DNA of 64,000 nucleotides, from positions 1 through 64,000 of the IMG/VR virus record IMGVR_UViG_3300002920_000014; one strand, given 5' to 3'. The stretch is from a virus. Below, one piece after another: positions 6,001 to 56,022 of the stretch. How positions within the stretch are numbered: position 1 is the stretch's first letter; each line of letters starts with the position of its first letter. Below the pieces are notes generated by a model. It was not told where the DNA came from and ran no database searches. It saw only the letters and a program-made list of their open reading frames with translations. The position numbers were made by a program, and so were the translations under genes.

Positions 6001-9000
6001 GATTTTATTACACAGTTACAATCTAATGTGTTTAAAAATGCTAATTTAATAACAGACGGATTATTAGGCAGTTTAAACACTAGCACTAAAACTTTTAGAG
6101 CAATATCCCAAAGTGGTTTTATAACTTCTTTGTTCTTGTTCTTAGGGGTGATGAGTAAGTTAGCTGGTCAAAATATGGCTTACTTACCAGATACTATAAT
6201 ATCTCTAAAAGTAATATTTGATTTTGTAGACTCTATGCAACAGACTGTGTTCAGAAACGCCAATATTGTAACAGATGGTTTGTTGAGTAATCTAACACAA
6301 TCAACTCAAATATTTAGAGCCACAGTTCAATCTGGATTTATAGGTTCTATTTTGCTGTTCATAGGGTTTATGTCTAAAATAGGTGGCGTTAACTTACAAT
6401 TCGCACCTGAAGTCTTAAAGAATCTTTATGTTATATTCTCTTTTGTAGAAAAACTTCAAACTACTGTATTTAAATCGGTCAATTTGATTACTGATGGTCT
6501 ACTTCAAGATTTAACCAGATCTACTAAGACTTTTAACGCTTTATCACAAAGTGGGTTTATAAACTCTATATTGTTAGTTATAGGTGTAATGTCAAGACTA
6601 GGTGGTGAGGACTTACAATATGCGCCAGCTGTTCTGAACAGTTTATCCTCTGTTTTTAACTTTATTGAAGGTCTTCAGACTAACGTATTTAAATCTGCAA
6701 ACATTATCAAAGATGGACTCTTTGAGGACCTAACAAAAACTACTAAAATGTTTAACGCTTTATCACAAGGAGGATTTGTATCTTCTTTGTTACTTGTGAT
6801 AGGGGTTTTATCAAAACTTGGCGGTTCTGGTCTAAAAGACATACCGAGTGTTTTATCCTCACTACCTTATTTAGGATCTTTCATAGATTCTATAAACTCT
6901 ACCGTGTTTAGGTCGGCTAACTTAATAAGTGATGGTTTGTTAGCAGATCTTAATAAAAATACTAAAGTGTTCAGAGCGTTGACTCAAAGTGGGTTTTTAT
7001 CTTCAATTCTTTTGGCTCTTGCCGCGTTCTCAAAACTTGCCGGCGTTAACACTCAGTACGTAGGTCCGGTATTACAAGCCTTGCCAGCTATAGGCACACT
7101 TATAGAGTCTTTGAACCGTACAATATTTTCATCGGCCAATTTAATACAAGACTGGTTATTAAAAGATTTTAATGATCAGATTAAGATGTATAGATCATTG
7201 ACTCAAGGGGGTTTTGTTGCTGCATTACTTGGCTTAATAGGAGCTATGGCACGTCTTGGCGGTTCTGCTTTACAATATGTACCTGGTATACTATCGTCGT
7301 TACCAGTTTTAGCTGATTTCTTGTCACAATTAAGAAAAACTATATTTGCTAATGCCGATCTCGTAACTGAAAGTGGACCTTTAGAAGAAGTAAATAAGAC
7401 TGCTAAAAAATTCAGAGCGTTGACACAAGGTGGTTTTCTGTCGTCAATATTGCTGATGATAGGTGTGATGACTCGAATTGGTGGTTCTAATCTACAATAC
7501 GCAGATAAAGCAGCTGTTGCAATAAAAGCTGTTACGGACTTTCTGTCTGCTGTTTCTCGCAACGTAACTAGTAGCTTTCTGGACTACATACCTATTATAT
7601 CGGATATTAAGAGAGCTTCTGAGCTATTTAAAGCTATAGTTCAGTCAGGTCTTTTTTCTCTTGCAGCTGTAGTGTTTTTATTGGCGACGCGCTTGTCTAA
7701 CGTTTCTGCTATAACTTCTATGGTTAATTTTTTTGATTCTATGAGTAAGTTGTACGTATCTCTCAAATCGTCTGCTAAAAATGACTTATCAATGGAGAAC
7801 GTTAAAACTTACTTCGCTCAAGTAGACTTTATACTTAATTCTATACGTCGACTAAAACTTAGTAAAAATGTAGATAGTTCTTTTTTGAACTCTGTAATTG
7901 GTCTCATATCAGCATTAAGTAACATAAAAGTCGATTTACCTGATACTCTTACTAGAATTGCTCCTGCTTTTAAAGATTTTGTTAGTTCGTTTAACAGTCT
8001 CAACATAGACGATAGATCATCAAAGTCTATAGTTAGAATTATAGATTCGTTAAAAAACATACCTAGAAACATACCTAATATACCAAAAATAGATGTAAAT
8101 GCACCAAAGTCTACGAACACTGCATATAGAAACTCTATAACGGAACTTAATAGTCTTCTCTCTATCATAGATAGAGTTACTTCAGCTGTTAAGTCTATGT
8201 TCCAAGCTTTTGCTTCTTTAACTAATATAGTTGGTTTAGTAAATAACGTGTCTAGAAGTGTAGTTGAGCTAGGCAGAAACGTTAGAGAAGTCGGAGACAA
8301 CATCATGCAGGCTGGCCAAAATATGGGCCAAGTATTTACTGGATTTCTCCGTAATCAAACGTTCTCTACAGTATCTGAATTTGATAAAATAGGTACTCAA
8401 CTTCAAGTTTTTGGTGGTCTTACAAATGAAGCCAGACGTGAAGCAGAAGATTTTGCACTTCAAATAGGCAAAAATTACCCGTTATCTGCTAATGAAGCAC
8501 TACAAGCTACAACCGATCTTATAAAAGCTGGTCAAAGTTTAGCTTCTACTAAATTCATTCTACCTAGTGCTTCTGATTTAGCGGCTCTTAGTGGGTCTTC
8601 TTTACCCGACGCCACTAATTTGTTAATCTTAGCAGAAAGTACTTTTAGCTCTTTTAGAGATGGCGTAGAAGGATCTTTTGAAAACATAGATAAAGCAGCT
8701 GACATACTCTCTGCGGCAGCAGACGCTAGTACAGCTTCGGTTCAAAGTTTAGGTGAGGGTTTAGCTAACGTATCATCAACTGCTAATATTGCAGGTATTA
8801 CTCTTGAAGAAACAGCCGCCATACTTGCTATACTGGATGAAAGCGGAAAGAAAGGAGCGGAAGGTGGTACGGCGCTTGCATCTATGTTTAACAGTTTAAC
8901 AAAACCAAAAACACAAAAGGCGCTAAGTGATTTACAAAGAACTGTTAGAGGTTTTGGTAAAGAGTTCAAAGATTTAAATGTAAGTTTATACAATCCTGAT

Positions 9001-12000
9001 GGATCTAGAAGGAATATCAATGATTATTTTAATAGTTTAGGTATAGCCCTTAAAGCTATAGAAGAGAGGCAAGGTACAAAAGGTGTAGATGCTTACATAA
9101 ATAGACTAGCTGACACTTATGGTAAACAAGGTTTACAAATTATCCTAGCTGGTGGCACTGACGCTATTAAAAACATGATAGAAGCAATGAACGATGTTGC
9201 CCCTGCGTCAGAACGCGCAGCGTCTATGCTTGATAATTTTGCTGGGGATGTAGAGCAACTCAAAGGATCTGTAGAAACTTTATATGTTAAAGCACTAAAG
9301 CCTTCCCTCGAAGAATTTTTTAGACCTTTTGTTAAGATTGGCAGATTAGTAGTAGATACTCTGATAAGTATGGATACAAAAATTGTATCTTTCTTAGGAA
9401 GTATGTTATCTGTGTCTGTTACGGGTGTAGGTAGCTTAGCAGCTTTAACGCTATCTTTTGGCGGTTTGCTCAAGGTAGGTGGGGCTGTTATATCCTCTCT
9501 AGGTTATATGATAAATGTACTAAAATTTGCAACTTGGTTTATGGGTTTATTATCCGGTTCTGTTATAGGGCTTGTGACTGCATTTACTGCACTGACTGTA
9601 ATAGTTCCAGTAATAGCCGGTGTAACGGCCACCTTTAAGAGCTTATATACCATACTCAGTCAAGACTTAGGAGGTGCTGCATCAGGAATCAGAAATGTAT
9701 TCGGTGTGTTAGGAGAATTTTTCTCTTCAATAAGCGAACTAGGTAACTCCGTTATAAACCTTATCAAAGAAGCTTTTGGTGACGGTGCTGGTACGAACGG
9801 CCTCTTAGATGCTGCTGGAGCGAGCATAGCTAACTTCTTTAACAACATAGCATCGGGATTGAAAAACGGTGCAATTGGACGTGTTACACAAGCGTTCAAA
9901 GACATGGCTGGTATCATTACTGCTTTTACCTCAGTGATGACAGTGGAGTCTAGACGTGCCAAACAGATAGAATCACGTAACAGACGTATGACCGAAGACG
10001 GTATATTTTCCGAAGAAGATATAGAAGCTTCTGTTAAATCAACAGAAACTAACTTTGATAAAGCTTATAAATCTCTTATCGATAACGTTGTTAAAAACAA
10101 CAAGTTGTTTAAAAAAGTATTTGGTGAAAGCTTTTCTCCTGATCAGTTCATTCAACTTGCCGAGAGCTTAAGAAGCAATTTTAACACCATCGGCAATGTT
10201 ATCGCCGATTTTAGAAAGCGTATATCTGAAGGAGTTGTCGGAGGTAATTTAAGTTTACCTGAATTGTTAGGACTTGGCAATGATACTGCTGGTAAAATAG
10301 CAGGAGAACTGGCAACAATTTTTGGCACTCTGTTCAATATAGATTTGTCACAAGTAGCAGCTAATTTTACAAACGGTGGTTTTATTGCGGGTATACAAGA
10401 TCTGTTTAGATCACTAATATCAAAAGCAGGTGAAGTTTTACTTAATAACAAAGAATCTTTAAGAACAGCCTTTATAGGTGTCTTAGAGTTTGCTTTTAGC
10501 CCCGTTAAACTTGTTGGGTTAATTGGAGATATATTTGATATAAAAGCACTTCAAGACATAGCTTCTGGGTTTGAAGAAGTTATGAAAAACGTGTTTGGTG
10601 GAATATTTGACACTTTAGTAGCTTTGCTTTCAGGTAAAGATATTGAAACAGCCCTCAATGAAGGGTTTGGTAAAACTTTTAACTCTATAATAGAGTTGAT
10701 AAGAGGGGTCGGTAGATCTATATCCCTCTTGTTTAAGTACATTTCGGAATCAATAAGTTCTTTTATATCCTCAATAGGAATAAGTGGTGAAACAGTAACC
10801 TCTGTTGTAAATGACATAATAAAAGCTTTAGCTGACGTTATAAAGATAATAAATGACGAATTTTTTACCCCGCTCGCAGAAGAAGGATTATTCGCCGCTC
10901 TTGGTAACGTGTTGAAACTGGCTTTTGAAACTATAAAAACGGTAGTCGCAGATATTATTAGTTACTTATCGACTATTGATATAGCCAGTGTTGTATCAAC
11001 TTTCGTAGCGACGTTATCCTCCAATTTAGTCAGTGGCTTGTCCTCTGCACTTTCCACAGCTGTTTCTTCTGTAGGCGGCGATACTAATTCTCTTAAATCT
11101 CTTTTTGAAACTACTCTAAGCAGCTTATTCGATATAAGTAGTACAGGTTTAGAAGGAGCGTTCGCTACTTTACCAGCAGCTTTATCTGGAGCACTTGCGA
11201 CAGCGCTCACTGCAGGCATTGAGCTTCTTGGGAGTACTCTGAACCTTGATGTGTCTGCAGTAACACAACGTATTAACGATACGTTACAGAGCATTTTTGA
11301 CGGCATCAAAGATCTCGTTGGTTTTGGTGAAGAAAACGGCATCATAGATAACATAAGGAAATTTGTAGATACGATACAAAAGTTGTTCGATGTTATAACG
11401 GGAAACAACACAGATAACGCTTCTAAGACAGCGTATAATTTAAACATACTAACAGCGGCACTACAATCGATCGCTAATTTGCCTTTAGCGATTATAGATC
11501 AGGCTATACGCACCATAGACTCTTTCTTTGACTTTATTGGGTCACTTGAACCTCAAGACATAGCTTTGGTTGCAGCAGGTATAGTTACTTTTGCTGGTGC
11601 TTATACAGTATTGACTACCGCTGCATCTTTAGGTGGTATAGCAAATCTACTAGCTATGAAAGGTTTGTTTGGAACTTTAGGGACTATTGCTTGGTCAGTC
11701 ATAAGCGGCGGCATAAGTGCTGTAGCCGGCGCTATAACAACCCTTATGAACTCTGTTGTTGGTAAGATGATTGGTGTTGCATCAGTAGTCCTCGTCATAG
11801 CTACTTTTGTTCAAAATCTTGGTCAATTAAAAGACGTTATTGATAACCTTCTCAAAGGTGACTTATTCGGAGCATTGGGTGAAGCCATACAAGGATTGAT
11901 TGACTTCTTAGGAGACATAGGTATCAATCTTCTTAAACTTTTAGGCTTCGATGAAGGATTCATACGTGGTGTACAAACAACTCTTGACCAAGTTGGGGTA

Positions 12001-14004
12001 CTCATAAATCTGCTGTTCACTGGTCTTGGTGTACAAATCACTTCATTTTTTGAAAACGTCTTCAACAAAATAGGCTATTTCTTTTCTACACAGCTACCTT
12101 TAATTCTTGCTAAAGCTGGGGCTGAGGCAGTAAGTCTAGCAAACCCAGACCGTGCTATAGATGGTCAAATAGCGGGCATAGAAAAATATTTAGGAGGAAC
12201 GGATTTTAGCGCAGCGAAAGATTTAGCAAGTACTACAGATGGTAGTTTTATACGTCAATTTACTAACACAGGTAATGCACTTAACGACGCTATTTCAGAT
12301 TATGCTAGAAAAACACTTGTGTCTAACATAGATAACTTTGTAAGATTTTTGAATGAAGAGTCTTTATCCACAGAAGGTTTTAGCACGGATATAGGTGCTC
12401 TTAACCTCGAACAATACGTAGGAGCTCTGAACGCTAGTGGCGGTGTAGATGAAGCAATTGGCAGAGCTTTTGCTATGGGGTATACCGATCTTGCAAATCA
12501 GATCATCGCTGAAGCTGACGCTAAAGGTTACAAGTTTGATATAGCTCCAGTTATCAATAATGCAGCCAGAGAAATAGTCAATTCAGTTGGTCAACAAGGC
12601 ATGTCTATGACCCCTGAAATGGTGGACTCTGCTGTAGCTCAGTTAGAAACCATGCGTGCAGAGCTAGTTGAGAGAGGTTTCTCTACCGATGGGGTAGACT
12701 CCGAAATTGCTCGTGTTCAGGGCTATTTTAGTATGCTTGTAAGTGCTGCTGCGAAAAGTAGTGAGGGGGCGGCCGAAGAGGCTGGTAGAGCTATAGGAGA
12801 AACTGCTTCAAGGGGTATAACGAATGGTATGTCTAACGTTGAAATTAGTAGTCCTGTTAGTCCACCTACGTCTACTATAACGGAAGACAGTTCAAACATT
12901 CCTTCTAATCCGATAAGTGTACCTGTTGAAGTCAATCCAGTTGTAACTGAAGTTACTCCCATTGCTGAAGATTCTACTAATTTAATTAAAAATTCCTTAG
13001 AAAGTGACATCTCAGAATCTATAGTAGAACTTAGCGTTCCTGCTCAAGCTACATTGGATATTCTGGACGTGGACACGCTGACGCCGGAAGCCATTACGGT
13101 TTTAAGTGAAGTCTTTGCTAAACTAAGTTTAGAACTTAAGGGTGTACATGAAACAATAAACACATTAGTTAAACCAGCTATTAATGAGTTAAGCTTATCA
13201 ATAGAGACGTTAATAAACGTCAATATCTCAAACTTTACAACATCGGCCACCGGTATGGCTAACACATTGACAACAATTGTTCTTCCCTCAATTGAACAAA
13301 TAAAAGCTTCTTTTAACAACATGTCGTTACTAACCATTCCTGTTTTGAACAGTATGCTCATGGTTACATCTAGCATATTATCCATAAATTTCCCAATAAG
13401 TGCTTCGTCTACAGCAACAGCTGTGAAACTAATTGAAGAAGCTTTCTTCAGTCTTGGAAACACTGTAACTCGCGTGACGAGTCTGTTATTGAACGTAGCA
13501 GAAGCCGCTGCCTCTGCCTCACAAAATGCTGCTGATGCAACTGGTAGGATAGCTGAGGCTGCAGTTGGTTCAGCTAATGCAGTAACGAATTCTTTAGGAG
13601 GTGGTTCATCTAAACCTCAAGGAAGAGCCAGTGGTGGTACAGTTAAACAAGGTATGTATCGCATTAACGAACAAGGATCTGAAGTCTTAATTGAACGTGG
13701 TAAGATGTACTTATTGTCTTCCGGCTTAGGTAAGATTGAACCATTGTCAAAAGGTCTACTGCCTAATTTTGATCCTACAGCAAGAACTATGGGGAATAAC
13801 ATTTATTCAGAAATTAGAAAGCCACCGATGAATAGCAACGAGTATTCATACAACACCTATAACGAAGGAGATATTGTTGTTAATGTCACAGTAGATAGCT
13901 CAGCCTCAGCTAAAGAAATATCAAACCGAGTTGCAGAAGCTATTCGTAGACAAAGACCAGAGCAGATAAGTGCTAAAAAGAATTTTAGGAGTAATCAACA
14001 ATGA
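3094..14004 (+). CDS. giant tail tape measure protein (3636 aa)
   Basis: A TP901/PhageMin_Tail-like core is present (FGGLTNEARREAEDFALQIGKNYPLSANEALQATTDLIKAGQSL...). There are hydrophobic helix clusters. The C-terminus is typical of tape-measure proteins (ASGGTVKQGMYRINEQGSEVLIERG). Dit/Tal-like genes follow. Confidence 0.8.
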   Translation: MAAGVSGFNLEVLSELVSKLDQVYVKLSQVEERLATISSTDLTLTISGRTAETLNTLVQNFEKLQNLDSESVSNIAKNLSNALDQLNKSDINDRLYKLQLPETFLQSAKGLNAFASAIARLGRSDVDVGLSIAKLSFSLKSLVDIDVSSIKSDNFNVFFEVGKSLASFALSFNRLSRLSESDFSNITTNVMNFIKNFSSFKIPQTFDRQILDISKSVSNIASVFKITSSLPLDYDITPFFVILDDFIDYLALASDEISKIEKVDLLFVISRLSRNMIDFIKLAGSKSDNLNVKNMFSVFDDLIHYFSTISDKIKSVQDLNDLSVLFKSFSQLANFFRVAKSIAVDFDIKGVIAIFEYFIGYIIRVSNRVSKLEGIDSLSSIFKYFSQLGEFSKSTRTITGSFDFTPIFTVLDQFIQFLIKTSDNVPKLDSIKDIISSLRLFIKVSELTIALENNSSITKNNLTHMFDSLKIFIDIISEELKVNTRVVDNLTTLRIILESIRDLFRLSKIVSNDPDYYKKLADLVSIIPILNNFTNQLKQIQTVPNESVVFFKKLSEVIRNISYITTIKENFNVSIIDKIINQLITTIANVYTKLNNGQLIKFDQIFPSIQSLILSIRRFINTIISNKGLLEDSSKVETIFKNMKKLLDGIPDLIGSVVGPIKFTTDIGARSVARILKDVGPLLTFIFKDLVNIIDEQTISTNLKNLLKRGLLLRLTAAAFGIFMDAIMMPFKAIENAKLGGIGDFTSGFGRLLEGVSSFSRFIKSLLEINLKFDKTTFIEITKIVGFIGLQVGLLILALAPVAFLNPTKLSALGDISKSFRYVLDFFSFVNSPDFVSKAGIAVALSVGTLLNKFFKTVVAGGFITYLLLIFASMAKLGGSDLKYVPDVIKSLKYVGEFIRSLNDNIFSNANLITDGLLKSLNEYTKIFRAISQGGFVISILIALGILTRLAGENTKFLPDVIKSLSSISDFITQLQSNVFKNANLITDGLLGSLNTSTKTFRAISQSGFITSLFLFLGVMSKLAGQNMAYLPDTIISLKVIFDFVDSMQQTVFRNANIVTDGLLSNLTQSTQIFRATVQSGFIGSILLFIGFMSKIGGVNLQFAPEVLKNLYVIFSFVEKLQTTVFKSVNLITDGLLQDLTRSTKTFNALSQSGFINSILLVIGVMSRLGGEDLQYAPAVLNSLSSVFNFIEGLQTNVFKSANIIKDGLFEDLTKTTKMFNALSQGGFVSSLLLVIGVLSKLGGSGLKDIPSVLSSLPYLGSFIDSINSTVFRSANLISDGLLADLNKNTKVFRALTQSGFLSSILLALAAFSKLAGVNTQYVGPVLQALPAIGTLIESLNRTIFSSANLIQDWLLKDFNDQIKMYRSLTQGGFVAALLGLIGAMARLGGSALQYVPGILSSLPVLADFLSQLRKTIFANADLVTESGPLEEVNKTAKKFRALTQGGFLSSILLMIGVMTRIGGSNLQYADKAAVAIKAVTDFLSAVSRNVTSSFLDYIPIISDIKRASELFKAIVQSGLFSLAAVVFLLATRLSNVSAITSMVNFFDSMSKLYVSLKSSAKNDLSMENVKTYFAQVDFILNSIRRLKLSKNVDSSFLNSVIGLISALSNIKVDLPDTLTRIAPAFKDFVSSFNSLNIDDRSSKSIVRIIDSLKNIPRNIPNIPKIDVNAPKSTNTAYRNSITELNSLLSIIDRVTSAVKSMFQAFASLTNIVGLVNNVSRSVVELGRNVREVGDNIMQAGQNMGQVFTGFLRNQTFSTVSEFDKIGTQLQVFGGLTNEARREAEDFALQIGKNYPLSANEALQATTDLIKAGQSLASTKFILPSASDLAALSGSSLPDATNLLILAESTFSSFRDGVEGSFENIDKAADILSAAADASTASVQSLGEGLANVSSTANIAGITLEETAAILAILDESGKKGAEGGTALASMFNSLTKPKTQKALSDLQRTVRGFGKEFKDLNVSLYNPDGSRRNINDYFNSLGIALKAIEERQGTKGVDAYINRLADTYGKQGLQIILAGGTDAIKNMIEAMNDVAPASERAASMLDNFAGDVEQLKGSVETLYVKALKPSLEEFFRPFVKIGRLVVDTLISMDTKIVSFLGSMLSVSVTGVGSLAALTLSFGGLLKVGGAVISSLGYMINVLKFATWFMGLLSGSVIGLVTAFTALTVIVPVIAGVTATFKSLYTILSQDLGGAASGIRNVFGVLGEFFSSISELGNSVINLIKEAFGDGAGTNGLLDAAGASIANFFNNIASGLKNGAIGRVTQAFKDMAGIITAFTSVMTVESRRAKQIESRNRRMTEDGIFSEEDIEASVKSTETNFDKAYKSLIDNVVKNNKLFKKVFGESFSPDQFIQLAESLRSNFNTIGNVIADFRKRISEGVVGGNLSLPELLGLGNDTAGKIAGELATIFGTLFNIDLSQVAANFTNGGFIAGIQDLFRSLISKAGEVLLNNKESLRTAFIGVLEFAFSPVKLVGLIGDIFDIKALQDIASGFEEVMKNVFGGIFDTLVALLSGKDIETALNEGFGKTFNSIIELIRGVGRSISLLFKYISESISSFISSIGISGETVTSVVNDIIKALADVIKIINDEFFTPLAEEGLFAALGNVLKLAFETIKTVVADIISYLSTIDIASVVSTFVATLSSNLVSGLSSALSTAVSSVGGDTNSLKSLFETTLSSLFDISSTGLEGAFATLPAALSGALATALTAGIELLGSTLNLDVSAVTQRINDTLQSIFDGIKDLVGFGEENGIIDNIRKFVDTIQKLFDVITGNNTDNASKTAYNLNILTAALQSIANLPLAIIDQAIRTIDSFFDFIGSLEPQDIALVAAGIVTFAGAYTVLTTAASLGGIANLLAMKGLFGTLGTIAWSVISGGISAVAGAITTLMNSVVGKMIGVASVVLVIATFVQNLGQLKDVIDNLLKGDLFGALGEAIQGLIDFLGDIGINLLKLLGFDEGFIRGVQTTLDQVGVLINLLFTGLGVQITSFFENVFNKIGYFFSTQLPLILAKAGAEAVSLANPDRAIDGQIAGIEKYLGGTDFSAAKDLASTTDGSFIRQFTNTGNALNDAISDYARKTLVSNIDNFVRFLNEESLSTEGFSTDIGALNLEQYVGALNASGGVDEAIGRAFAMGYTDLANQIIAEADAKGYKFDIAPVINNAAREIVNSVGQQGMSMTPEMVDSAVAQLETMRAELVERGFSTDGVDSEIARVQGYFSMLVSAAAKSSEGAAEEAGRAIGETASRGITNGMSNVEISSPVSPPTSTITEDSSNIPSNPISVPVEVNPVVTEVTPIAEDSTNLIKNSLESDISESIVELSVPAQATLDILDVDTLTPEAITVLSEVFAKLSLELKGVHETINTLVKPAINELSLSIETLINVNISNFTTSATGMANTLTTIVLPSIEQIKASFNNMSLLTIPVLNSMLMVTSSILSINFPISASSTATAVKLIEEAFFSLGNTVTRVTSLLLNVAEAAASASQNAADATGRIAEAAVGSANAVTNSLGGGSSKPQGRASGGTVKQGMYRINEQGSEVLIERGKMYLLSSGLGKIEPLSKGLLPNFDPTARTMGNNIYSEIRKPPMNSNEYSYNTYNEGDIVVNVTVDSSASAKEISNRVAEAIRRQRPEQISAKKNFRSNQQ
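3560..5010 (+). repeat. degenerate ~56-aa repeat series inside the tape-measure N-terminal third (approximate bounds)
   Basis: A recurring pattern F-x-x-h-D-x-F-I-x-Y/F...S-D/N-x-h-x-K-h...L-x-x-h-F-K/R-x-h-S is seen about 8-10 times, for example FFVILDDFIDYLALASDEISKIE, FSVFDDLIHYFSTISDKIKSVQ and FTVLDQFIQFLIKTSDNVPKLD. Confidence 0.6.
5599..7570 (+). repeat. in-frame tandem array, 219-nt (73-aa) period, about 8-9 units, inside the tape-measure gene
   Basis: The anchor motif (N/S)-(A/V)-N-(L/I)-(I/V)-x-D-(G/W)-L starts at 5818, 6037, 6256, 6475, 6694, 6913, 7132 and 7351, exactly 219 nt apart. Each unit also has T-K-x-F-R-A-(I/L)-(S/T)-Q-(G/S)-G-F followed by a hydrophobic helix and L-(A/G)-G. 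Confidence 0.9.
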
Positions 14005-48070: not shown

Positions 48071-48143
48071 GTGCGCCCTACAGGATTCGAACCTGTAACC
48101 TAGTGGTTATGAGCCACCTGCTCTGACCGTTGAGCTAAAGGCG
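48071..48143 (-). tRNA. tRNA with CAU anticodon (elongator Met, or Ile2 if lysidine-modified)
   Basis: A hand-folded cloverleaf was obtained. The acceptor is GCGCCTT/AGGGCGC, the D arm GCTC/GAGC, the anticodon loop CTCATAA and the T arm ACAGG-TTCGAAT-CCTGT. Discriminator A. Confidence 0.85.
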
Positions 48144-48184
48144 CGTTGAAATCATTGTAACAAAAAGCTGTGTGTCAAACAACC

Positions 48185-48637
48185 CTAAATACTTGAAAGT
48201 AAATACTTGAAAGTCTCCAAGAAAGCATGGAGAACTTCAAAAGTCTGACAAACAAGGTTTTTATTCTGAACACACCGAACCAACACCTCCGCATCTTCAT
48301 CCCCAGTCAACGTCAGCCCAAATAAAAATACAACTTCAAAAAACTTAGGGTATTGAGCTTTAGCTAACTCTCTGTGAACGGCGCTAACCAAAACGCCGCC
48401 CGTATTTTCCACAAGAACATACATTACATCATCCCCCCAAGAAAGATTCAAAGGCAGAATCAAGTCGTCGTCTTGGTATGCAAGACGAATAGATTTGGCA
48501 TGCGGCCAGTTAAAAACAGCGCATGCCAAAATTAAATACATACTAATGTCCTCAGATGCGTCTGGGACAATATCAGAAATAACACTAGCGCACGAAAACA
48601 GTGCGCGTAAAGCTGGAACATCAATATACCCCACCAT
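48185..48637 (-). CDS. hypothetical protein
   Basis: Starts at the ATG at 48637. The longer ORF to 48721 runs into the tRNA gene. Confidence 0.5.
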   Translation of the reverse strand: MVGYIDVPALRALFSCASVISDIVPDASEDISMYLILACAVFNWPHAKSIRLAYQDDDLILPLNLSWGDDVMYVLVENTGGVLVSAVHRELAKAQYPKFFEVVFLFGLTLTGDEDAEVLVRCVQNKNLVCQTFEVLHAFLETFKYLLSSI

Positions 48638-48662
48638 AATAACCCCGTGTATATTTAGTAAA

Positions 48663-48735
48663 TGCCCCTCGTGGGATTCGAACCCACACTGTGCCGATTT
48701 TAAGTCGGTTGCCTCTGCCATTGGGCTAGAGGGGC
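48663..48735 (-). tRNA. tRNA with UAA anticodon but a short (5-nt) variable loop; Leu(UAA)-like, atypical
   Basis: In the hand fold the acceptor is GCCCCTC/GAGGGGC and the anticodon loop is CTTAAAA. The T arm is GTGGG-TTCGAAT-CCCAC, with A73. The D stem has only 3 bp and there is an A27-C43 mismatch. Confidence 0.7.
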
Positions 48736-48739
48736 TAAA

Positions 48740-48812
48740 TGCCCTGGACAGGGATCGAACCTGCGACCTATCGCTTAGAAGGCGACTGCTCTATCCGCTG
48801 AGCTACCAGGGC
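48740..48812 (-). tRNA. tRNA-Arg (UCU)
   Basis: In the hand fold the acceptor is GCCCTGG/CCAGGGC and the D arm is GCTC/GAGC. The anticodon loop is CTTCTAA and the T arm is GCAGG-TTCGATC-CCTGT. Confidence 0.85.
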
Positions 48813-48877
48813 ATTTTTATGTTACCACTCTCCAATATCGAGGTCAATACTTAACCCCGATAAAAACGTATTACCAA

Positions 48878-50207: not shown

Positions 50208-50456
50208 AATCTATCTCCGCGCCACTTTGGGCTGTCGCTACACCCTGCCACCAATTAAGCCGGTGACCAGCCAGTGGAGCTGTGGGGATTTGCACCCCAA
50301 TCCAGCCCGCCTGCCTTGTCAAGGCCGCCCCCTATCCTGTGCGCCTTCACGGGGGTCTTACGCGGCTCAGCGGGCTGTCGACACTATACCAGCCCCGTAT
50401 TTTGCGCGTGTAGGATGCGCGCCCCCCTTGAATCGACTTAGCGCCTTAATGCCAGT

Positions 50457-51284
50457 TCAGGTATAGACCGGATCATCGCCGGTTTTATTACCGTCTTGGA
50501 CAAATATTAGGTCATGAAGATCGACTTTTACCGTATCGTTACGGTAAAGGACGACCTTTTCCCAAACACCCCGGGTGGGCCTATCATCATGGTAAAACAA
50601 CCCGGGATTTTCATCTTGGTCATAGACGTAACCCTCTATAAGGGCCACGTCAGAGAAACCCAATTTCTCTCCGCCAGCTAGGAGGGTCATACCCTCCCAG
50701 CGGGCGTCTGGATCTTTAATTTTACGACCATCGGAGGTCGTGATTACTGGGTCTTTTCCCAACTCGGGATGAGAGACTCCATTGGCCCAATTACAGGCCA
50801 ACGGGCACTCGCCCATATGGAAAAATTTACCCCCCACAACCACATGGGGAGTGGACGAAAGAATCGAGCGCCTTTCGGCCTCAAGGGCCTGTAATTGGCC
50901 CAAATAGTATATGTAAGCCTTATGGGCCTCCTCGATGGCCGATAGGGCCTCTTCTACCGACGAAAAAATCGTCGGCTCTGGAGTTTCTCTATGCAACCAA
51001 GAGTTGCTGGCATCTACCCCAGTAGGGTTAGCACGCCAGCCCCTCTCCCCCTTCGAGAGGGCCGAGGGGTGGATTTCGACTATGGCCCCCACCTCTAGCA
51101 TGGAGGCCCTACGACCCGGCACAAAAACTGTTTGCGAATTTTTCTGATGGCGTGCCATGCTTAATAGCGCGCCATTCTCAAACAGCTTAACGACTTTGGC
51201 CGCTACAGTTATCGGACCAAAGTCACTAACCGTTCTATACGACGGTAAGTCGGGCAGTTTTACCCGACTGGGTATTTTATCCAC
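50457..51284 (-). CDS. hypothetical protein (GC-rich island; start uncertain)
   Basis: The ORF extends to 51380. A GTG at 51284 is preceded by AAGGGGGG and overlaps the upstream stop (GTGGATAA), suggesting translational coupling. Confidence 0.5.
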   Translation of the reverse strand: MDKIPSRVKLPDLPSYRTVSDFGPITVAAKVVKLFENGALLSMARHQKNSQTVFVPGRRASMLEVGAIVEIHPSALSKGERGWRANPTGVDASNSWLHRETPEPTIFSSVEEALSAIEEAHKAYIYYLGQLQALEAERRSILSSTPHVVVGGKFFHMGECPLACNWANGVSHPELGKDPVITTSDGRKIKDPDARWEGMTLLAGGEKLGFSDVALIEGYVYDQDENPGLFYHDDRPTRGVWEKVVLYRNDTVKVDLHDLIFVQDGNKTGDDPVYT

Positions 51285-51540
51285 GTTTACCCCCCTTAAC
51301 TTTTTTGGCCGCCCGACGAGCGGCCAGTTGAAACGAGTGCGTTGGCTGGGTATGGGGAATAGAAATGTTCTTACGCCCATGAGCCAACGTTAGCTCAATG
51401 GGATTGCCCGGAACAACAGTAAGAACTTTCTCCCCATTTTCCCAAGTGAAATACGGCAACTTACCGGACTTAAGGATTTCAGCAGCGTGACGCTGCTGAG
51501 ACTCAAGTTTTATCCTATCTTTCTTATTCTTTTTGGCCAT
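51277..51540 (-). CDS. small basic protein (GC-rich island)
   Basis: ATG at 51540 follows GAGGAAAAAATC. The longer ORF to 51597 would read through tRNA-like module 1. Confidence 0.5.
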   Translation of the reverse strand: MAKKNKKDRIKLESQQRHAAEILKSGKLPYFTWENGEKVLTVVPGNPIELTLAHGRKNISIPHTQPTHSFQLAARRAAKKVKGGKRG

Positions 51541-51570
51541 GATTTTTTCCTCGTCTTTGCATATATCAAA

Positions 51571-51647
51571 AACACCAGGTGGGATTCGAACCCACAAAAC
51601 CGTTTATGTCAGAGTTGTCTGATGAGACAAGTCTAACATCTGGTGTT
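51571..51647 (-). ncRNA. tRNA-like module 1 (acceptor-like stem + long hairpin + canonical T arm, no D arm)
   Basis: The - strand reads AACACCAG | ATGTTAGACTTGTCTCATCAGACAACTCTGACAT | AAACGGTTTT | GTGGG-TTCGAAT-CCCAC | CTGGTGTT, then TTTTT. Confidence 0.6.
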
Positions 51648-51650
51648 AAT

Positions 51651-51679
51651 AGTTTAACGTCATTTCGGACGGAAGTCAA
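51651..51679 (-). promoter_or_regulatory. sigma70-like promoter (TTGACT-17 nt-TAAACT) abutting tRNA-like module 1
   Basis: The -35 is at 51679-51674 and the -10 at 51656-51651. It is embedded in a 68-nt block identical to 52708-52775. Confidence 0.5.
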
Positions 51680-51737
51680 CAGGCAGTTTAACGTCATGCC
51701 CAGGACGATTTTCACTACGAAAGAACAAAACCCCTAA

Positions 51738-52013
51738 TCACAACCAGGGGTTCTGCTCTTTAATTTCCCGCTGGGTGGCTGCGTCACCCAGCCAAAAATA
51801 ATAATCGAGGTAGAGGAGCATAAGTTGGCGATTAAGCACCAGATAGGTGTCATAATCATCCTCGGTAGCCTCTAGATAGGCTTCTAAGACACGAGGACGC
51901 AAAGCCTCAATTTCACGGCGCAAAATGCGCGCGTATCCACGACGACGGGCAACCCCAATTCGCTCAGCCATTTCATGAGCACGCTTACGAGCGGCACGAC
52001 GGTCTTCGCACAT
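51738..52013 (-). CDS. small Arg-rich protein (GC-rich island)
   Basis: ATG at 52013 follows TAAGGAGAAAAATC. Confidence 0.5.
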   Translation of the reverse strand: MCEDRRAARKRAHEMAERIGVARRRGYARILRREIEALRPRVLEAYLEATEDDYDTYLVLNRQLMLLYLDYYFWLGDAATQREIKEQNPWL

Positions 52014-52045
52014 GATTTTTCTCCTTACTGTTCTTGTATACAAAA

Positions 52046-52116
52046 AACACCAGGTGGGATTCGAACCCACAAAACCAATTATGACAGACTTTGTAAAAAA
52101 TCTGTCATCTGGTGTT
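52046..52116 (-). ncRNA. tRNA-like module 2
   Basis: The - strand reads AACACCAG | ATGACAGATTTTTTACAAAGTCTGTCAT | AATTGGTTTT | GTGGG-TTCGAAT-CCCAC | CTGGTGTT, then TTTTT. Confidence 0.6.
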
Positions 52117-52139
52117 ATAAAGAATGGATTGATATTTAA

Positions 52140-52601
52140 TCAATCCACCCACTCCAGCCCACCGACAAAGTCGGTGGAGTGAACGAAACCGCTTGACGAC
52201 GGGTGGCAACAGCCACCCCATCCTCGAGACCTTATGAATTCCGAAGCCGCCTTATAGTACTCTTCACGGCGCTCTTTCCCCTGATGCCCAGGGAAATTAA
52301 GTTTCATCCAACCAAAGTACTCTCTTTGAAACTCTAACTCCTGAGGAGTTAGCGTTTCCTCGACGGAGGATTCTTCTTCTTCTTCGTGTTCAAACGAAGA
52401 AAGACGACAGGCAGTGCGCAAAAGCGCCTCAGGATCAAAAAGTTCGTCATCATCCCCGTCTATGACGATGACGGGAACATCGTCGTCATCGTCGTCATCG
52501 TCGTTAGAATCGAAACGACGGGCCTTGCTAAGAGCAACGATATTGTTCAGGGCCTGCTCGGCCCAAGTCTCATCAACGGGATTGAAGGTTTCGATAGTCA
52601 T
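52140..52601 (-). CDS. highly acidic protein with poly-Asp and poly-Glu tracts (GC-rich island)
   Basis: ATG at 52601 follows TAGGAGAAACATC. Contains DSNDDDDDDDDVPVIVIDGDDDELFDPE and HEEEEESSVEE. Confidence 0.55.
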   Translation of the reverse strand: MTIETFNPVDETWAEQALNNIVALSKARRFDSNDDDDDDDDVPVIVIDGDDDELFDPEALLRTACRLSSFEHEEEEESSVEETLTPQELEFQREYFGWMKLNFPGHQGKERREEYYKAASEFIRSRGWGGCCHPSSSGFVHSTDFVGGLEWVD

Positions 52602-52640
52602 GATGTTTCTCCTATTCTTGTATTACATTCGCGTACAAAA

Positions 52641-52715
52641 AACACCAGGTGGGATTCGAACCCACAAGACCAATTATGACGTACTACCCACATAGACAGT
52701 ACGACATCTGGTGTT
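52641..52715 (-). ncRNA. tRNA-like module 3
   Basis: The - strand reads AACACCAG | ATGTCGTACTGTCTATGTGGGTAGTACGTCAT | AATTGGTCTT | GTGGG-TTCGAAT-CCCAC | CTGGTGTT, then TTTTTT. Confidence 0.6.
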
Positions 52716-52718
52716 AAT

Positions 52719-52747
52719 AGTTTAACGTCATTTCGGACGGAAGTCAA
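52719..52747 (-). promoter_or_regulatory. sigma70-like promoter (TTGACT-17 nt-TAAACT) abutting tRNA-like module 3
   Basis: The sequence is identical to the 51651-51679 element. Confidence 0.5.
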
Positions 52748-52785
52748 CAGGCAGTTTAACGTCATGCCCAGGACGTGAGGCTGAA

Positions 52786-53121
52786 TTAGTTTCTCGGAGA
52801 AAGTCTATCCAAAATGGGCGGGGGGATCTTGTCCCCTACCCATAAAACCGGTGTTTGTCCCCTCAGACCCACTACGGGGTACTCTTCTGGGGAGACAAAC
52901 GCCCCAACGAAATTTTCCCAAGCTTTCATAAGCTTGGGGTCGTCTGAGACGCCCCCATATTCGTGGAGGAGGGTTATCACCTCCACGAGGAGCTCGTGGA
53001 GGTCCACAACGCCATCTTCAAGAATGTAAGACGGCGCCACAACCCTCTCAACTACTTTTTCAACCTCAATCACTTTCTCAATCACTTTTGGCGCAAAAAA
53101 GCGCCGAAAAAACTTGAACAT
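52786..53121 (-). CDS. hypothetical protein; GC-rich paralog of backbone gene 43386..43796
   Basis: TAAGGAGGACAC upstream of the ATG. Collinear similarity to 43386..43796 over most of its length (see that entry). Confidence 0.6.
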   Translation of the reverse strand: MFKFFRRFFAPKVIEKVIEVEKVVERVVAPSYILEDGVVDLHELLVEVITLLHEYGGVSDDPKLMKAWENFVGAFVSPEEYPVVGLRGQTPVLWVGDKIPPPILDRLSPRN

Positions 53122-53376
53122 GTGTCCTCCTTATAGGCGATTAGAGCGATTTTTACAGCCCCTAGGTAGAGGTACAAGCCTGGGGGCTGTAAAAACGCTT
53201 TATAGGCCCTTGTGGGCCTTGTATGAGGCACTAGAAAAAACACCTAATGCCCCCCACAAGAGTCACAAGGGGTGACGGCCCGTACGGATAAGGCTGGCTA
53301 GGCCCCTGGGTAGCCCGTACACTCCCAGGAAAAGGTCATCCTCGTAATAAAATATACTAATATTTTGGTATTAATT

Positions 53377-53548
53377 ATGTTGATTAAAAAATCAACTATG
53401 CTAGTATTATGTCAGTACGGTGTCAGTACTGACAGGGAAACGCACCTATATCACCTATTATATTATATTAGGTGATATAGGTGCATTTTGCACCCTTCCC
53501 CTGAAAAAACTAGCATAGTGTTGACATAGTTGATTTTTTAATCAACAT
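53377..53548. repeat. 172-bp nested inverted-repeat structure in an AT-rich patch
   Basis: The outer arms are 53377-53404 and 53510-53548; the right arm carries an 11-nt insertion. The central palindrome is GCACCTATATCACCTA-11 nt-TAGGTGATATAGGTGC at 53442-53484. There are inner palindromes GTTGATTAAAAAATCAAC, GTCAGTACTGAC and GTTGATTTTTTAATCAAC. Confidence 0.85.
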
Positions 53549-53647
53549 GTCAGCACTACCCCATTTTAACACGGGGTAAAAAATTTTTTAACTTGTGTTA
53601 AAATTTAATTTTAAACTAGCAAAAAAATTATTTTAACTCATTTTAAA

Positions 53648-53793
53648 CCCCAGCCCCAGCCCCTCATTAGGGCTGGGGCTGGGGGCTGGAGGCTGGGGTA
53701 TGGGGGCTGTATTCGCCCCCATACCCCACAGCCCTTGTGGTGATTACGGGGGCTGGAGGCTGGGGTATGGGGCTGTATTCGCCCCCATACCCC
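53648..53793. repeat. GC-rich hairpin repeat cluster
   Basis: One 15-bp hairpin is CCCCAGCCCCAGCCC / GGGCTGGGGCTGGGG at 53648-53684. There are also two copies of GGGGGCTGGAGGCTGGGGTATGGGG(G)CTGTATTCGCCCCCATACCCC, each forming a 12-13-bp hairpin (53695-53727 and 53762-53793). Confidence 0.85.
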
Positions 53794-53806
53794 AGTTCTT
53801 GAGCCT

Positions 53807-54085: not shown

Positions 54086-54119
54086 CGTATCCTCGTTTCT
54101 TTTGATAGTTAAGTGTGTT

Positions 54120-54160
54120 GGAGGCTGGAGGCTGGGCGGGGGCTGTATCAGCCCCCGCCC
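54120..54160. repeat. third member of the GGAGGCTGG-hairpin family
   Basis: GGAGGCTGGAGGCTG is followed by the 12-bp hairpin GGGCGGGGGCTG-TAT-CAGCCCCCGCCC, located between two - strand genes. Confidence 0.8.
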
Positions 54161-54657: not shown

Positions 54658-54705
54658 GATAGCCTCCTTATGGTTAACGGTTAGCAGTGCCTCAATCTGA
54701 GACAC

Positions 54706-55517
54706 TAGTAAGGGCCGTAACGTATGGCACGTTACGGCCCTTACTATTGGCTCGATTGATACGGGCTACTGTGACGGGCGTCACAGTAGCCCTAATCTTG
54801 TTGATTGCCCCCCTCGGGGTCAACGGGCGGGAGTCCTCATACCCTATGCCAGCTTACCCTCGTACATTGTACTACTCTCAGACTGGCCCGCGCCTCGCCC
54901 CAGCTAGTTGACTTACGATACCTTAAGTCCCTGTTACTGAAACTTACGCGGCTACTCTCTTACTACTCCTGCCGGTTGTCTTTTGCCCGTCTATAGCCAC
55001 TTGAATGACTTACCGTCACCCGTATGGGCTATTCGTGGCTATGGCCCGCGGGCGGGGTAACCCCCGCCCACAAGTAGCGCTAACCGTCTGCGCCTCAGCT
55101 ACGCCCGCGGCCAGCCCAAAACTGGAACTTGTTCCAGTGCTGGTAACGTCTCGGCCCTCACAGCTCGCCTTACGCTGTTCCGAGTTTCGAGGCGTCCCGT
55201 ATACCGCGTCTAGGTATCTAGACTTACGGGTCATCCCGCCCACTCGGGCGACAGCTTCCAGTGACGCTCTTAGGGGCGTCACCGTTAAGGGCGGCCGTTC
55301 CCAGTTCACCGCTGGGCCTCGGGGGCTTTCACCCCGAGCTAGGCTCGCCGTCCTCTAATCATGCGCTTGGGGGGTAACCCGCCCCAAGGGCTTTTCGAGG
55401 GACTTACTCGCGCGGGCGCATTCCGCGCATTAGGCAGCGCTCAATTGTTAAGGAGCGTTTGGGGGCGTTCCGTCTACCCCCTCGGGGGGGCTGGCCCGTC
55501 TGCCAGCCCGTCTTGAC
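54706..55517 (-). ncRNA. candidate large structured RNA or ~0.8 kb structured 5' leader (bounds approximate)
   Basis: There is no convincing ORF on the transcribed strand. At least 12 GC-rich hairpins are present, including a perfect 16-bp stem at 54707-54745 and a 13-bp stem at 54763-54792. GGGGTAACCC-type loops recur. A sigma70-like promoter lies immediately upstream. Confidence 0.45.
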
Positions 55518-55523
55518 ACTGAC

Positions 55524-55552
55524 ATACTACCTCGCCCCGTTAGCGGAGTCAA
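55524..55552 (-). promoter_or_regulatory. sigma70-like promoter (TTGACT-17 nt-TAGTAT)
   Basis: The -35 is at 55552-55547 and the -10 at 55529-55524. An AT-rich, UP-like stretch lies upstream on the - strand. It points into the structured region. Confidence 0.55.
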
Positions 55553-55605
55553 CTGTTTAGCCGTTTTCTTTAATCTGTTTCTCATGTTTTTCATTTTGGG
55601 GCGTC

Positions 55606-55800
55606 GCCAGCTGCTCCAGCAACGGCAGTCTCCAGCTGCTCCAGCAACGGCAGTCTCCAGCTGCTCCAGCAACGGCAGTCTCCAGCTGTTCCAACAACGG
55701 GCGTCGCCCGCTGTTCCAACAACGGGGGCGACTGCTCCAGCAACGGGGGCGACTGCTCCAGCAACGGCAGTCTCCAGCTGCTCCAGCAACGGGGGGCGAC
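55606..55800. repeat. eight tandem iteron-like repeats (21-25-nt period)
   Basis: The core GCTG(C/T)TCCA(G/A)CAACGG starts at 55610, 55635, 55660, 55685, 55710, ~55731, ~55752 and 55777. Confidence 0.9.
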
Positions 55801-55992
55801 TGCTTTTACCAGTCTTTAGGGGTGTATTCTTGTTCTGTTTTTTGTTGTGTGTACTGTCTGTTACTTTTTAAGTGTCAAGGCTATGTGTATATTACTAACA
55901 TATAGCTTTGTTACAATTATTATGGAATATTCCGAAATGTTTGAATCACGTTGTGACAAACGTATCGAGATTTTTTATGAATTTTTTAATTA

Positions 55993-56022
55993 TTGACTTT
56001 TGATACTAGTATGTGGTATAAT
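55993..56022 (+). promoter_or_regulatory. strong sigma70-like promoter (TTGACT-18 nt-TATAAT, TGG extended -10)
   Basis: The -35 is at 55993-55998 and the -10 at 56017-56022. It shares ATGTGGTATAATTAATTA with the promoter at 61822-61851. Confidence 0.65.

Follow-up and report, generated by a model that had tools for sequence, protein, structure and literature searches.

Three tRNA-like modules with a variable hairpin head small early genes of an uncultured tailed phage

In plant mitochondria, t-elements are said to act as tRNA-like processing signals, as Hanic-Joyce in 1990 and Forner in 2007 reportedly described. Here we compare these and other described systems with three tRNA-like modules of about 70 to 76 nucleotides (nt) on the minus strand of a viral genome, IMGVR_UViG_3300002920_000014, of which a 64,000-nt stretch (the window, whose numbering is used throughout) was analyzed; the modules were read on the minus strand of 51300-52900. 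Each module (m1, m2, and m3, by increasing coordinate) retains the acceptor stem and T arm of a tRNA, the rest being swapped for a variable hairpin. A preliminary description of this DNA had held that no such phage system has been described. That is right for this architecture, which we did not find described for any phage in the literature or in family databases, but it is too strong for the principle, which has precedents in tRNA-like punctuation (t-elements), excised tRNA-shaped RNAs (mascRNA), and repeated promoter/stem-loop cassettes around phage ORFans (PeSLs). We tentatively favor, at a probability of roughly 0.4, the reading that the modules are tRNA-derived cis elements of early mRNAs that would be handled by host RNase P and RNase Z, as t-elements are in plant mitochondria.

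Plant mitochondria use degenerate tRNAs with a GGTTCRANYCC motif to make mRNA ends (PMC1920247). Like the modules, t-elements combine a noncanonical tRNA-like fold, an acceptor-like stem, and that motif in the T arm (PMC1920247); they lie in mRNA leaders and trailers, beside real tRNAs that are used likewise. The motif, which is used to define t-elements, is present in all three modules as GGTTCGAATCC. Cleavage by RNase P and RNase Z and addition of CCA have been shown in part for t-elements and are proposed here for the modules. Unlike the modules, t-elements are organellar rather than phage-borne, have no repeated promoter, and form a degenerate cloverleaf instead of one long variable hairpin; there is no sequence homology between the two. 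The mascRNA and menRNA of MALAT1 and MEN-beta are likewise tRNA-shaped, lack a decoding anticodon loop, and are embedded in longer transcripts, where cutting by RNase P and RNase Z sets the end of the flanking RNA and frees a small tRNA-like RNA (PMC11693755). They differ from the modules in being vertebrate nuclear RNAs at the 3' end of a long noncoding RNA (lncRNA) and in retaining an equivalent of the D arm, and no family of this type was reported for the modules in an Rfam scan at E ≤ 10.

Among phage systems, the PeSLs of T4-type phages resemble the modules in being repeated cassettes of about 100 bp that set a sigma-70-like early promoter and a stable stem-loop beside ORFans, for preference in variable early regions (PMC2839356, PMC4122927). 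The combination of promoter, stem-loop, repeat, and ORFans is found at m1 and m3; m2 has only a weak promoter box. PeSLs are simple G/C-rich terminator stem-loops of T4-group myoviruses, whereas the modules are tRNA-derived three-way junctions; effective termination and recombination (mini-circles and gene replacement between related phages) are further marks of PeSLs. According to PMC11143913, RNase P cuts mRNAs and also phage non-tRNA RNAs, namely phi80 M3 and P1/P7 C4, whose precursors mimic the acceptor/T-arm part of a tRNA and are matured by the host enzyme. These are single regulatory RNAs, with known antisense targets in the case of C4, whereas the modules come in three copies with different hairpins, have no detectable targets, and stand before genes.

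The tRNA-like domain of transfer-messenger RNA (tmRNA) also retains acceptor stem and T arm and has an outgoing helix in place of the anticodon arm. In the modules, however, the single-stranded linker lies on the 3' side of that helix (5' in tmRNA), position 3:70 is A:U rather than G3:U70, and there is neither a tag reading frame nor a pseudoknot; we therefore rejected tmRNA as a candidate. The tmRNA mode of ARAGORN found none even at an 80% threshold, and the match of Rfam model RF00023 is confined to the 17 nt of the T arm (11 to 14 bits).

Reading of the sequence bore out the preliminary account of three minus-strand elements with a common stem, hairpin, linker, and T-arm plan. In full, the plan comprises an 8-bp acceptor-like stem, a hairpin that begins with ATG and ends with CAT, a 10-nt linker (AAnnGGUyUU), a T arm, the 3' stem strand, a U run, a Shine-Dalgarno (SD) sequence, and a small open reading frame (ORF). 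In m3 (52641-52715), the parts are a 5' stem strand AACACCAG (52715-52708), a 32-nt hairpin ATGTCGTACTGTCTATGTGGGTAGTACGTCAT (52707-52676), a linker AATTGGTCTT (52675-52666), a T arm GTGGGTTCGAATCCCAC (52665-52649), a 3' stem strand CTGGTGTT (52648-52641), and a U-rich trailer, TTTTG (52636-52640), that makes a six-T run once two T's of the stem are counted. The same 5' stem strand opens m2 (52046-52116) at 52116-52109; it is followed by a 28-nt hairpin ATGACAGATTTTTTACAAAGTCTGTCAT (52108-52081), a linker AATTGGTTTT (52080-52071), the T arm (52070-52054), and the 3' stem strand (52053-52046), then TTTTG. It also opens m1 (51571-51647) at 51647-51640, followed by a 34-nt hairpin ATGTTAGACTTGTCTCATCAGACAACTCTGACAT (51639-51606), a linker AAACGGTTTT (51605-51596), the T arm (51595-51579), and the 3' stem strand (51578-51571), then TTTG. 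A run of five to six T's had been reported after each module; the U run is present, but that count includes two T's of the 8-bp stem, and only three to four lie beyond it. The hairpins are paired and run from ATG to CAT as described, but their pairing is imperfect, with a U·U mismatch in m3, a C·C mismatch in m1, and several G·U pairs. Each module does head a small gene: the start codons at 52601 (m3), 52013 (m2), and 51540 (m1) are preceded by AGGAG, AAGGAG, and GAGGA, respectively, as had been noted, and the SD sequence lies 18 to 27 nt beyond TTT(T)G.

The T arm of all modules is GTGGG-TTCGAAT-CCCAC and is identical, as first noticed in the preliminary description, to that of the nearby tRNA-Leu(UAA) gene (48671-48687). 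The window contains these 17 nt four times, once per module and once in tRNA-Leu, versus 0.01 times expected by chance. The register is that of a tRNA: a 7-bp acceptor stem is continuous with the 5-bp T stem, the T stem adjoins the 3' acceptor strand, and the 7-nt T loop, TTCGAAT, fits the consensus TTCRANY. A GG conserved in the linker would be free to make a docking contact with the T loop. With its filters switched off, a covariance model built on the three copies found exactly those three in the 64 kb (95 to 101 bits; m3, 101; m2 and m1, 94.7 each); the next match was tRNA-Leu, at 25 bits.

The minimum-free-energy fold of every module is the proposed three-way junction (−29 to −31 kcal/mol; z, −3.9 to −5.6), with none of 200 shuffles as stable; m3 folds at −29.2 kcal/mol (z, −4.1) and m1 at −31.1 kcal/mol (z, −4.3). 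In the three-sequence alignment, 97.4% of cells are paired, compared to 90.2 ± 2.6% in shuffles and 36 to 50% when the partner is slid. Two-sided changes occur at six pairs, all of them in the hairpin. The acceptor stem and T arm are invariant across the three copies and, because they never vary, say nothing about structural selection; the earlier argument for such selection from preserved pairing thus holds for the hairpin but gains no evidence from the acceptor stem and T arm. The fold of the minus strand beats that of the plus strand by 0.9 to 6.1 kcal/mol, owing to the G·U pairs, which fits an RNA read from the sense strand rather than a DNA palindrome.

Divergence between copies is concentrated in the hairpin: of the 28 variable hairpin columns, 19 distinguish m1 from m3, whereas among 110 other positions (60 nt of upstream sequence included) only 3 do so (Fisher p = 8e-14), and their leaders diverge again beyond the module. 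Neutral decay after duplication cannot produce this pattern. Either the flanks are homogenized or constrained, with the hairpin free to change, or selection favors hairpins that differ; hairpin pairing is retained either way. Conservation of the module is not that of a protein-coding sequence, because the T arm falls in three different reading frames across the copies, which rules out a protein-coding module. A leader peptide was also rejected: the conserved ATG opens mini-ORFs of 7, 9, and 11 codons, but it has no SD sequence and is buried in a stem. Two of these mini-ORFs stop at the TAA of CATAA, a coincidence of frame that is not significant. SD sequestration or a riboswitch-like switch was likewise set aside since no alternative fold is common to the three leaders.

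Judged by their sequence, the modules descend from tRNA genes, because their 3' half reads like that of a tRNA with a CAU anticodon and because the T arm together with CTGG is typical of tRNA-Leu genes. Aligned with the phage's own tRNAs, a module reads as N33, CAT, AA, a 5-nt 3' anticodon-stem strand, a shortened variable region, the T arm, and the acceptor strand. Most simply, the closing CAT would be a relic of the anticodon, followed by A37, A38, and the 3' strand of the anticodon stem, and the ATG that opens the hairpin would be the partner now sequestering it. The best permissive Rfam match is to RF04354 (Plastid-ycf2 5'UTR), on the opposite strand and at full length, with scores (30.9, 25.1, and 20.2 bits) that fall far short of the family threshold; read as its reverse complement, the RF04354 consensus is called tRNA(CAU) by ARAGORN and has TCATAATTGG in common with m2 and m3.

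The modules are not copies of the end of a host tRNA, as the preliminary description had allowed they might be. The 21-mer made of the T arm and 3' acceptor strand (GGTTCGAATCCCACCTGGTGT) has no exact match in 185,579 species genomes, both acceptor strands are present in each module, and no integrase was found among the ORFs scanned for domains. A looser 21-mer ending in CTGG gave at least 120 matches, which are ordinary tRNAs with other acceptor strands, none of them continuing with TGT; 68 of the 103 genome matches called by ARAGORN are tRNA-Leu. Altered tRNA genes were seen elsewhere: the tRNA array of another phage (locus L005, reverse strand, 4587-4646) holds a tRNA-Asn-like gene without an anticodon arm (TACTTAGTTGCCGTAGTGGGTGATGAATAATCCAACGTAGGTTCGAATCCTACCTAAGTAGCA), and three loci from Flavobacteriia (L040, L055, and L111) carry tRNA genes with the same T arm and a long insertion in the anticodon region that ARAGORN does not call; these probably contain introns.

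Both m3 and m1 follow a sigma-70-type promoter, TTGACT-17-TAAACT, at 52719-52747 and 51651-51679, respectively, on the minus strand. Each promoter lies inside a 72-nt repeat (52704-52775 and 51636-51707); these repeats are 100% identical, and identity between the repeated cassettes is 100% over 72 + 33 nt. The preliminary description had a promoter-like box in every unit, which holds for m1 and m3 but not for m2: at best, m2 has a weak TTGATT-18-TATAAC that extends into the 5' end of the module. Each 72-nt repeat has two copies of the 13-mer ATGACGTTAAACT (51680-51707 and 52748-52775), one ahead of the −35 box and one spanning the −10 box; this direct repeat could be a regulator-binding site or tandem −10 boxes.

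Two transcription units result. The first runs from its promoter through m3, a 153-amino-acid (aa) gene, m2, and a 91-aa gene to a terminator; the second comprises promoter, m1, an 87-aa gene, a 307-aa gene, and onward. The terminator between them (51719-51752, minus strand), at the end of the 91-aa ORF, is of the canonical intrinsic type, an AACCCCT/AGGGGTT stem followed by TTGTTCTTTC, recognized from its sequence and from terminator-type Rfam alignments (rnk leader and ohsC models). Module m2 is intercistronic: it lies 24 nt past the stop codon of the 153-aa gene and does not have the repeated promoter. Lacking a strong promoter and placed between two genes of a terminated unit, it must be read through if the second gene is to be expressed and so acts within an mRNA.

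All three downstream genes lie on the minus strand and are ORFans. The acidic 153-aa protein headed by m3 (52140-52601) has no PHROG match and no significant Pfam match, and its codon usage scores 0.34 bits per codon in frame 0. The arginine-rich 91-aa protein headed by m2 (51738-52013) is predicted to form a helical hairpin (pLDDT, 86), a generic fold for which a structure search found no relative; the lysine-rich 87-aa protein headed by m1 (51277-51540) gave no reliable structure model (pLDDT, 48). The three small ORFs are probably real genes because they match the codon use of the phage's long genes in frame 0 only. Their 307-aa neighbor has no relative among 5.8 billion proteins, and a joint query of the four flanking small proteins, swamped by low-complexity words, returned nothing. 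Between the 307-aa ORF and the next gene is a 240-nt G+C-rich noncoding spacer (50215-50455, minus strand).

A similar arrangement recurs at the real tRNA genes of this phage, also on the minus strand. One unit (48663-48847) consists of TTGACC-17-TAACAT, 6 nt, G1 of tRNA-Arg(UCU), tRNA-Leu(UAA), and an ORF; the other (48071-48178) consists of TTGACA-16-AATGAT, 6 nt, G1 of tRNA-Met(CAU), an SD sequence, and a 284-aa ORF. In both (48071-48847), the seventh nucleotide after the −10 box is G1, so that leaderless tRNA transcripts are predicted, and both units run into an ORF. All three tRNA genes lack an encoded CCA, and the trailer of two is TTTA. Thus, the layout is not peculiar to the modules, given that the tRNA-Arg/Leu and tRNA-Met genes have the same order of promoter, tRNA, SD sequence, and ORF; promoter, tRNA or tRNA-like element, U-rich trailer, and gene is the general design of this part of the genome.

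ARAGORN at default settings and Rfam at gathering thresholds called only tRNA-Met, tRNA-Leu, and tRNA-Arg (48071-48813); as the preliminary description had anticipated, the default tRNA finder made no call at a module. The related claim that the modules cannot decode, having neither a D arm nor a usable 7-nt anticodon loop, also withstood scrutiny: with relaxed and mitochondrial settings, ARAGORN gave Met(cat), mt-Asp(gtc), and Glu(ctc), which are mutually inconsistent and have poor stems, and no module reached the RF00005 gathering threshold (29 bits) or matched any member of the tRNA clan at gathering. A decoding tRNA was therefore rejected. At E ≤ 10, the Rfam matches within tRNA-like families were tRNA-Sec (21.3 bits) for m2 and otherwise T-arm fragments of tmRNA, and no other Rfam family accepted a module.

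A split or intron-containing tRNA(CAU) was considered as well. Removing the hairpin between positions 33 and 34 leaves ACCAG-AUCAUAA-UUGGU, a good anticodon stem-loop in m2 and m3, but a D arm and a second 5' acceptor strand are both lacking, and m1 breaks the pairing; further ACACCAG sites occur at chance frequency only. Integron attC-like sites were rejected since inspection found neither core motif (RYYYAAC and GTTRRRY), and N4-type hairpin early promoters were rejected because the giant 3636-aa ORF (3094-14004) is a tape measure protein and not a virion RNA polymerase; moreover, the module hairpins have 8 to 15 bp and 4-nt loops versus 5 to 7 bp and 3-nt loops for the N4 type. An antisense or seed role of the hairpins was likewise rejected, as only chance matches of 10 to 11 nt occur elsewhere in the window. 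A terminator scan of the modules flagged only the T arm with a distant U run, and four of the eight pairs of the closing stem, which lies at the base of a branched fold, are G-C.

The evidence comes from three module copies in one uncultured phage genome. The window covers most of the genome of a tailed phage and encodes, besides the tape measure protein, a large terminase (TerL), DNA polymerase, primase, helicase, methyltransferase, ThyX, and a DEDD exonuclease; the modules sit in the leftward early region, among ORFs without family assignment. A DNA search against GenBank phages gave no match to the window. TerL is at most 29% identical to that of cultured phages, which is why the host cannot be inferred, and 42 to 48% identical to that of a handful of metagenomic contigs; sequencing run SRR15359041 contains a closer relative, with 88% TerL identity. 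This is a previously unseen tailed phage, unrelated to the T4 group. No homologue of the modules was found in IMG/VR, JGI metagenomes, GTDB genomes, phage GenBank entries, or the retrieved TerL relatives. In IMG/VR, a 25-mer and two degenerate patterns matched ordinary tRNA-Met genes only; in the JGI metagenomes, the exact 21-mer gave seven matches, mostly type-II tRNA-Leu(UAA) genes in the tRNA arrays of other phages. A descriptor scan, which picks up the modules along with all real tRNAs, and the three-copy covariance model likewise found no module homologue in any fetched locus, including the TerL relatives of 42 to 48% identity.

How the modules might work as processed cis elements can be outlined as follows. 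They would have originated from a promoter-plus-tRNA(CAU) cassette of this phage, whose D arm and 5' side of the anticodon arm were swapped for a plain hairpin, and would now be cis-acting RNA elements heading early ORFan mRNAs. The transcribed minus strand would fold as a tRNA-shaped three-way junction, with the linker GG docked on the T loop, and the host tRNA-maturation enzymes would take this junction for a tRNA precursor. RNase P would then cut the 5' edge in transcripts reading in from upstream (an obligatory step for the intercistronic m2), and RNase Z (or RNase E) would cut the U-rich trailer after the discriminator position. Such cleavage would uncouple neighboring cistrons, set a defined 5' end for each small early gene, and also free a stable tRNA-shaped RNA; without the 3' cut, the mRNA would go on carrying a highly stable fold at its 5' end. 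The 12-bp acceptor/T stack and T loop on which RNase P, RNase Z, and the CCA-adding enzyme depend are intact in the modules. The host must already process tRNA-mRNA cotranscripts with RNase P, a 3' endonuclease, and a CCA-adding enzyme because the phage's own tRNAs lack CCA and have the same layout. The anatomy of the sequence, the descent from tRNAs, the hairpin with its strand preference and compensated changes, the operon context, and the matching layout of the real tRNA genes are observed; start sites, every cleavage, and the effect on expression are what we infer in this scheme.

Several points weigh against it. By the start rule taken from G1 of the real tRNAs (seventh nucleotide after the −10 box, a 6-nt gap), m1 and m3 transcripts would begin with the A of ACCAG, base 3 of the 7-bp acceptor stem ACACCAG and thus 2 to 3 nt inside the stem (about 52712 for m3), leaving RNase P nothing to remove and only 5 bp closing the junction; because the rule points inside the stem, the 5' end of the promoter-derived module RNA is uncertain. 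When m3 is folded with its downstream leader, the minimum-free-energy structure favors pairing of ACCAG with UUGGU of the linker. Recent duplication may be all that lies behind the identity of acceptor stem and T arm among copies, a pure processing signal does not account for the confinement of divergence to the hairpin, and the lack of homologues in the collections searched leaves long-term maintenance of the element without support.

That confinement of divergence suggests instead selection for different hairpins on one scaffold, as expected if the excised small RNA were the product. The tRNA scaffold would supply processing, CCA, and stability, and a hairpin payload of 12 to 15 bp would act in trans early; the RNAs could be decoys or sponges for host factors that bind the acceptor end or elbow (tRNA-targeting toxins or defense nucleases), or they could be specific ligands of host or phage proteins. 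The scaffold retains every feature required by RNase P, RNase Z, and the CCA-adding enzyme, m1 and m3 have strong early promoters of their own that start at the module and a U run after it, as in small-RNA genes, and phage tRNAs are known counter-defense tools. We nevertheless consider this alternative unlikely: without an anticodon loop, the modules cannot decoy anticodon nucleases, no hairpin has a complementary target of ≥12 nt in the window, m2 has no strong promoter of its own, and there are no homologues to show that the hairpins are maintained. In addition, every copy stands 18 to 27 nt before an SD sequence, with related leader sequence, which points to a role in cis. A fuller version, in which early tRNA-shaped RNAs matured like tRNAs form a natural tRNA-scaffold system whose different hairpins serve as trans decoys of tRNA-directed immunity or as regulators, strikes us as rather improbable. 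These readings and that of processed cis elements are not all exclusive, as processing would both define mRNA ends and free the small RNA. We view with similar doubt the proposal that the modules are PeSL-like promoter/terminator units: module and U run would terminate or attenuate incoming transcription, the overlapping promoter would restart it with an RNA that is missing some or all of the closing stem and thereby escapes termination, and the near-identical repeats would double as recombination linkers that shuffle ORFans, with tRNA likeness a matter of ancestry only. A sigma-70 promoter beside a stable structure, repeated with complete identity and flanking early ORFans, is what defines PeSLs, and in one subclass of these the stem-loop follows closely after the −10 box (PMC2839356). 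Transcripts of m1 and m3 are predicted to start within the 5' stem strand and a transcript from the weak TATAAC box of m2 to start past it, the stem is followed by five to six U's, and identity of the flanks is as expected from recombination between repeats. Yet the 8-bp closing stem, with its four G-C pairs and branched fold, is unlike the canonical terminator of this phage, which lies 70 nt upstream of the m1 promoter and would make m1 redundant as a terminator, and efficient termination at m2 would leave the 91-aa gene on a poor promoter. Nor does a U-rich trailer after a tRNA fold need to be a terminator: real tRNAs have similar trailers, and that of tRNA-Arg precedes another tRNA by 4 nt. 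Retained pairing in the variable hairpin is also left unexplained.

Retained pairing counts equally against the view that the modules are nonfunctional relics of a promoter-tRNA cassette, recently duplicated along with gene insertions, whose tRNA body decayed as internal parts were deleted or replaced. Phage arrays do contain tRNA relics that have lost an arm (the tRNA-Asn-like gene of L005 is an example), no homologues are known, and the copies share one acceptor stem, T arm, and promoter sequence, as they would soon after duplication. However, neutral decay would have spread the differences evenly instead of confining them to the hairpin, the three hairpins are almost perfectly paired with two-sided changes at six pairs, and three independent decays would not converge on the same architecture, junction bases, and linker; we regard this view as quite improbable. 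Elements that act as DNA, whether attP-type remnants of a host tRNA, attC-type recombination sites, or protein-binding palindromes, have very little in their favor: integration sites often carry the 3' part of a tRNA from the anticodon loop on, much like the 3' half of the modules, and the hairpins are palindromes. Against this stand the genome searches with both 21-mers, the presence of both acceptor strands, the absence of an integrase among the scanned ORFs and of attC core sites by inspection, and the G·U pairs, which improve the fold on the transcribed strand only; this possibility is highly improbable. Both relics and DNA-level sites fit the data poorly.

About 830 nt on the minus strand (54690-55525; 58 to 63% G+C), which immediately follow a TTGACT-17-TAGTAT promoter (55552-55524) and precede a 159-aa ORF, appear to be noncoding and fold at −400 kcal/mol versus −326 ± 9 in shuffles (z, −8.3), with many long perfect hairpins; the stretch matches no Rfam family and is a candidate large structured RNA. 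Between the divergent early (minus) and packaging/structural (plus) promoters, the latter being TTGACT-18-TATAAT at 55993 on the plus strand, are seven tandem 25-nt repeats CTGCTCCAGCAACGGCAGTCTCCAG (55586-55807) that look like iterons or a replication origin. An AT-rich intergenic region (53300-53660; 36% G+C) with repeated GTTAAAAT / TTAAAA-17-TAAAAT promoter-like boxes and inverted repeats (GTTGATTAAAAAATCAAC; CTATGCTAG/CTAGCATAG) may be a control region, and GGGGCTGTATTCGCCCC hairpins flanked by CCCAGCCTCCAGCC-type repeats are present in three copies at 53667-53794 and 54099-54156. The 3636-aa tape measure ORF is exceptionally long, implying a very long tail.

The weight of these findings is limited by their source, a single uncultured phage genome with no known host and no homologues found. 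Processing of the proposed kind would make the modules the first phage case of degenerate tRNAs serving as mRNA punctuation or 5' stabilizers, a principle so far known from organelles and vertebrate lncRNAs, and would show how a promoter-tRNA cassette can become a portable means of expressing new early genes. The variable but paired hairpin on a constant scaffold hints at a payload or specificity function; if the RNAs do act in trans on a tRNA scaffold, they would be a new class of phage noncoding RNA. In practical terms, such a compact unit of promoter, self-processing leader, and SD sequence resembles engineered tRNA-based insulators and scaffolds.

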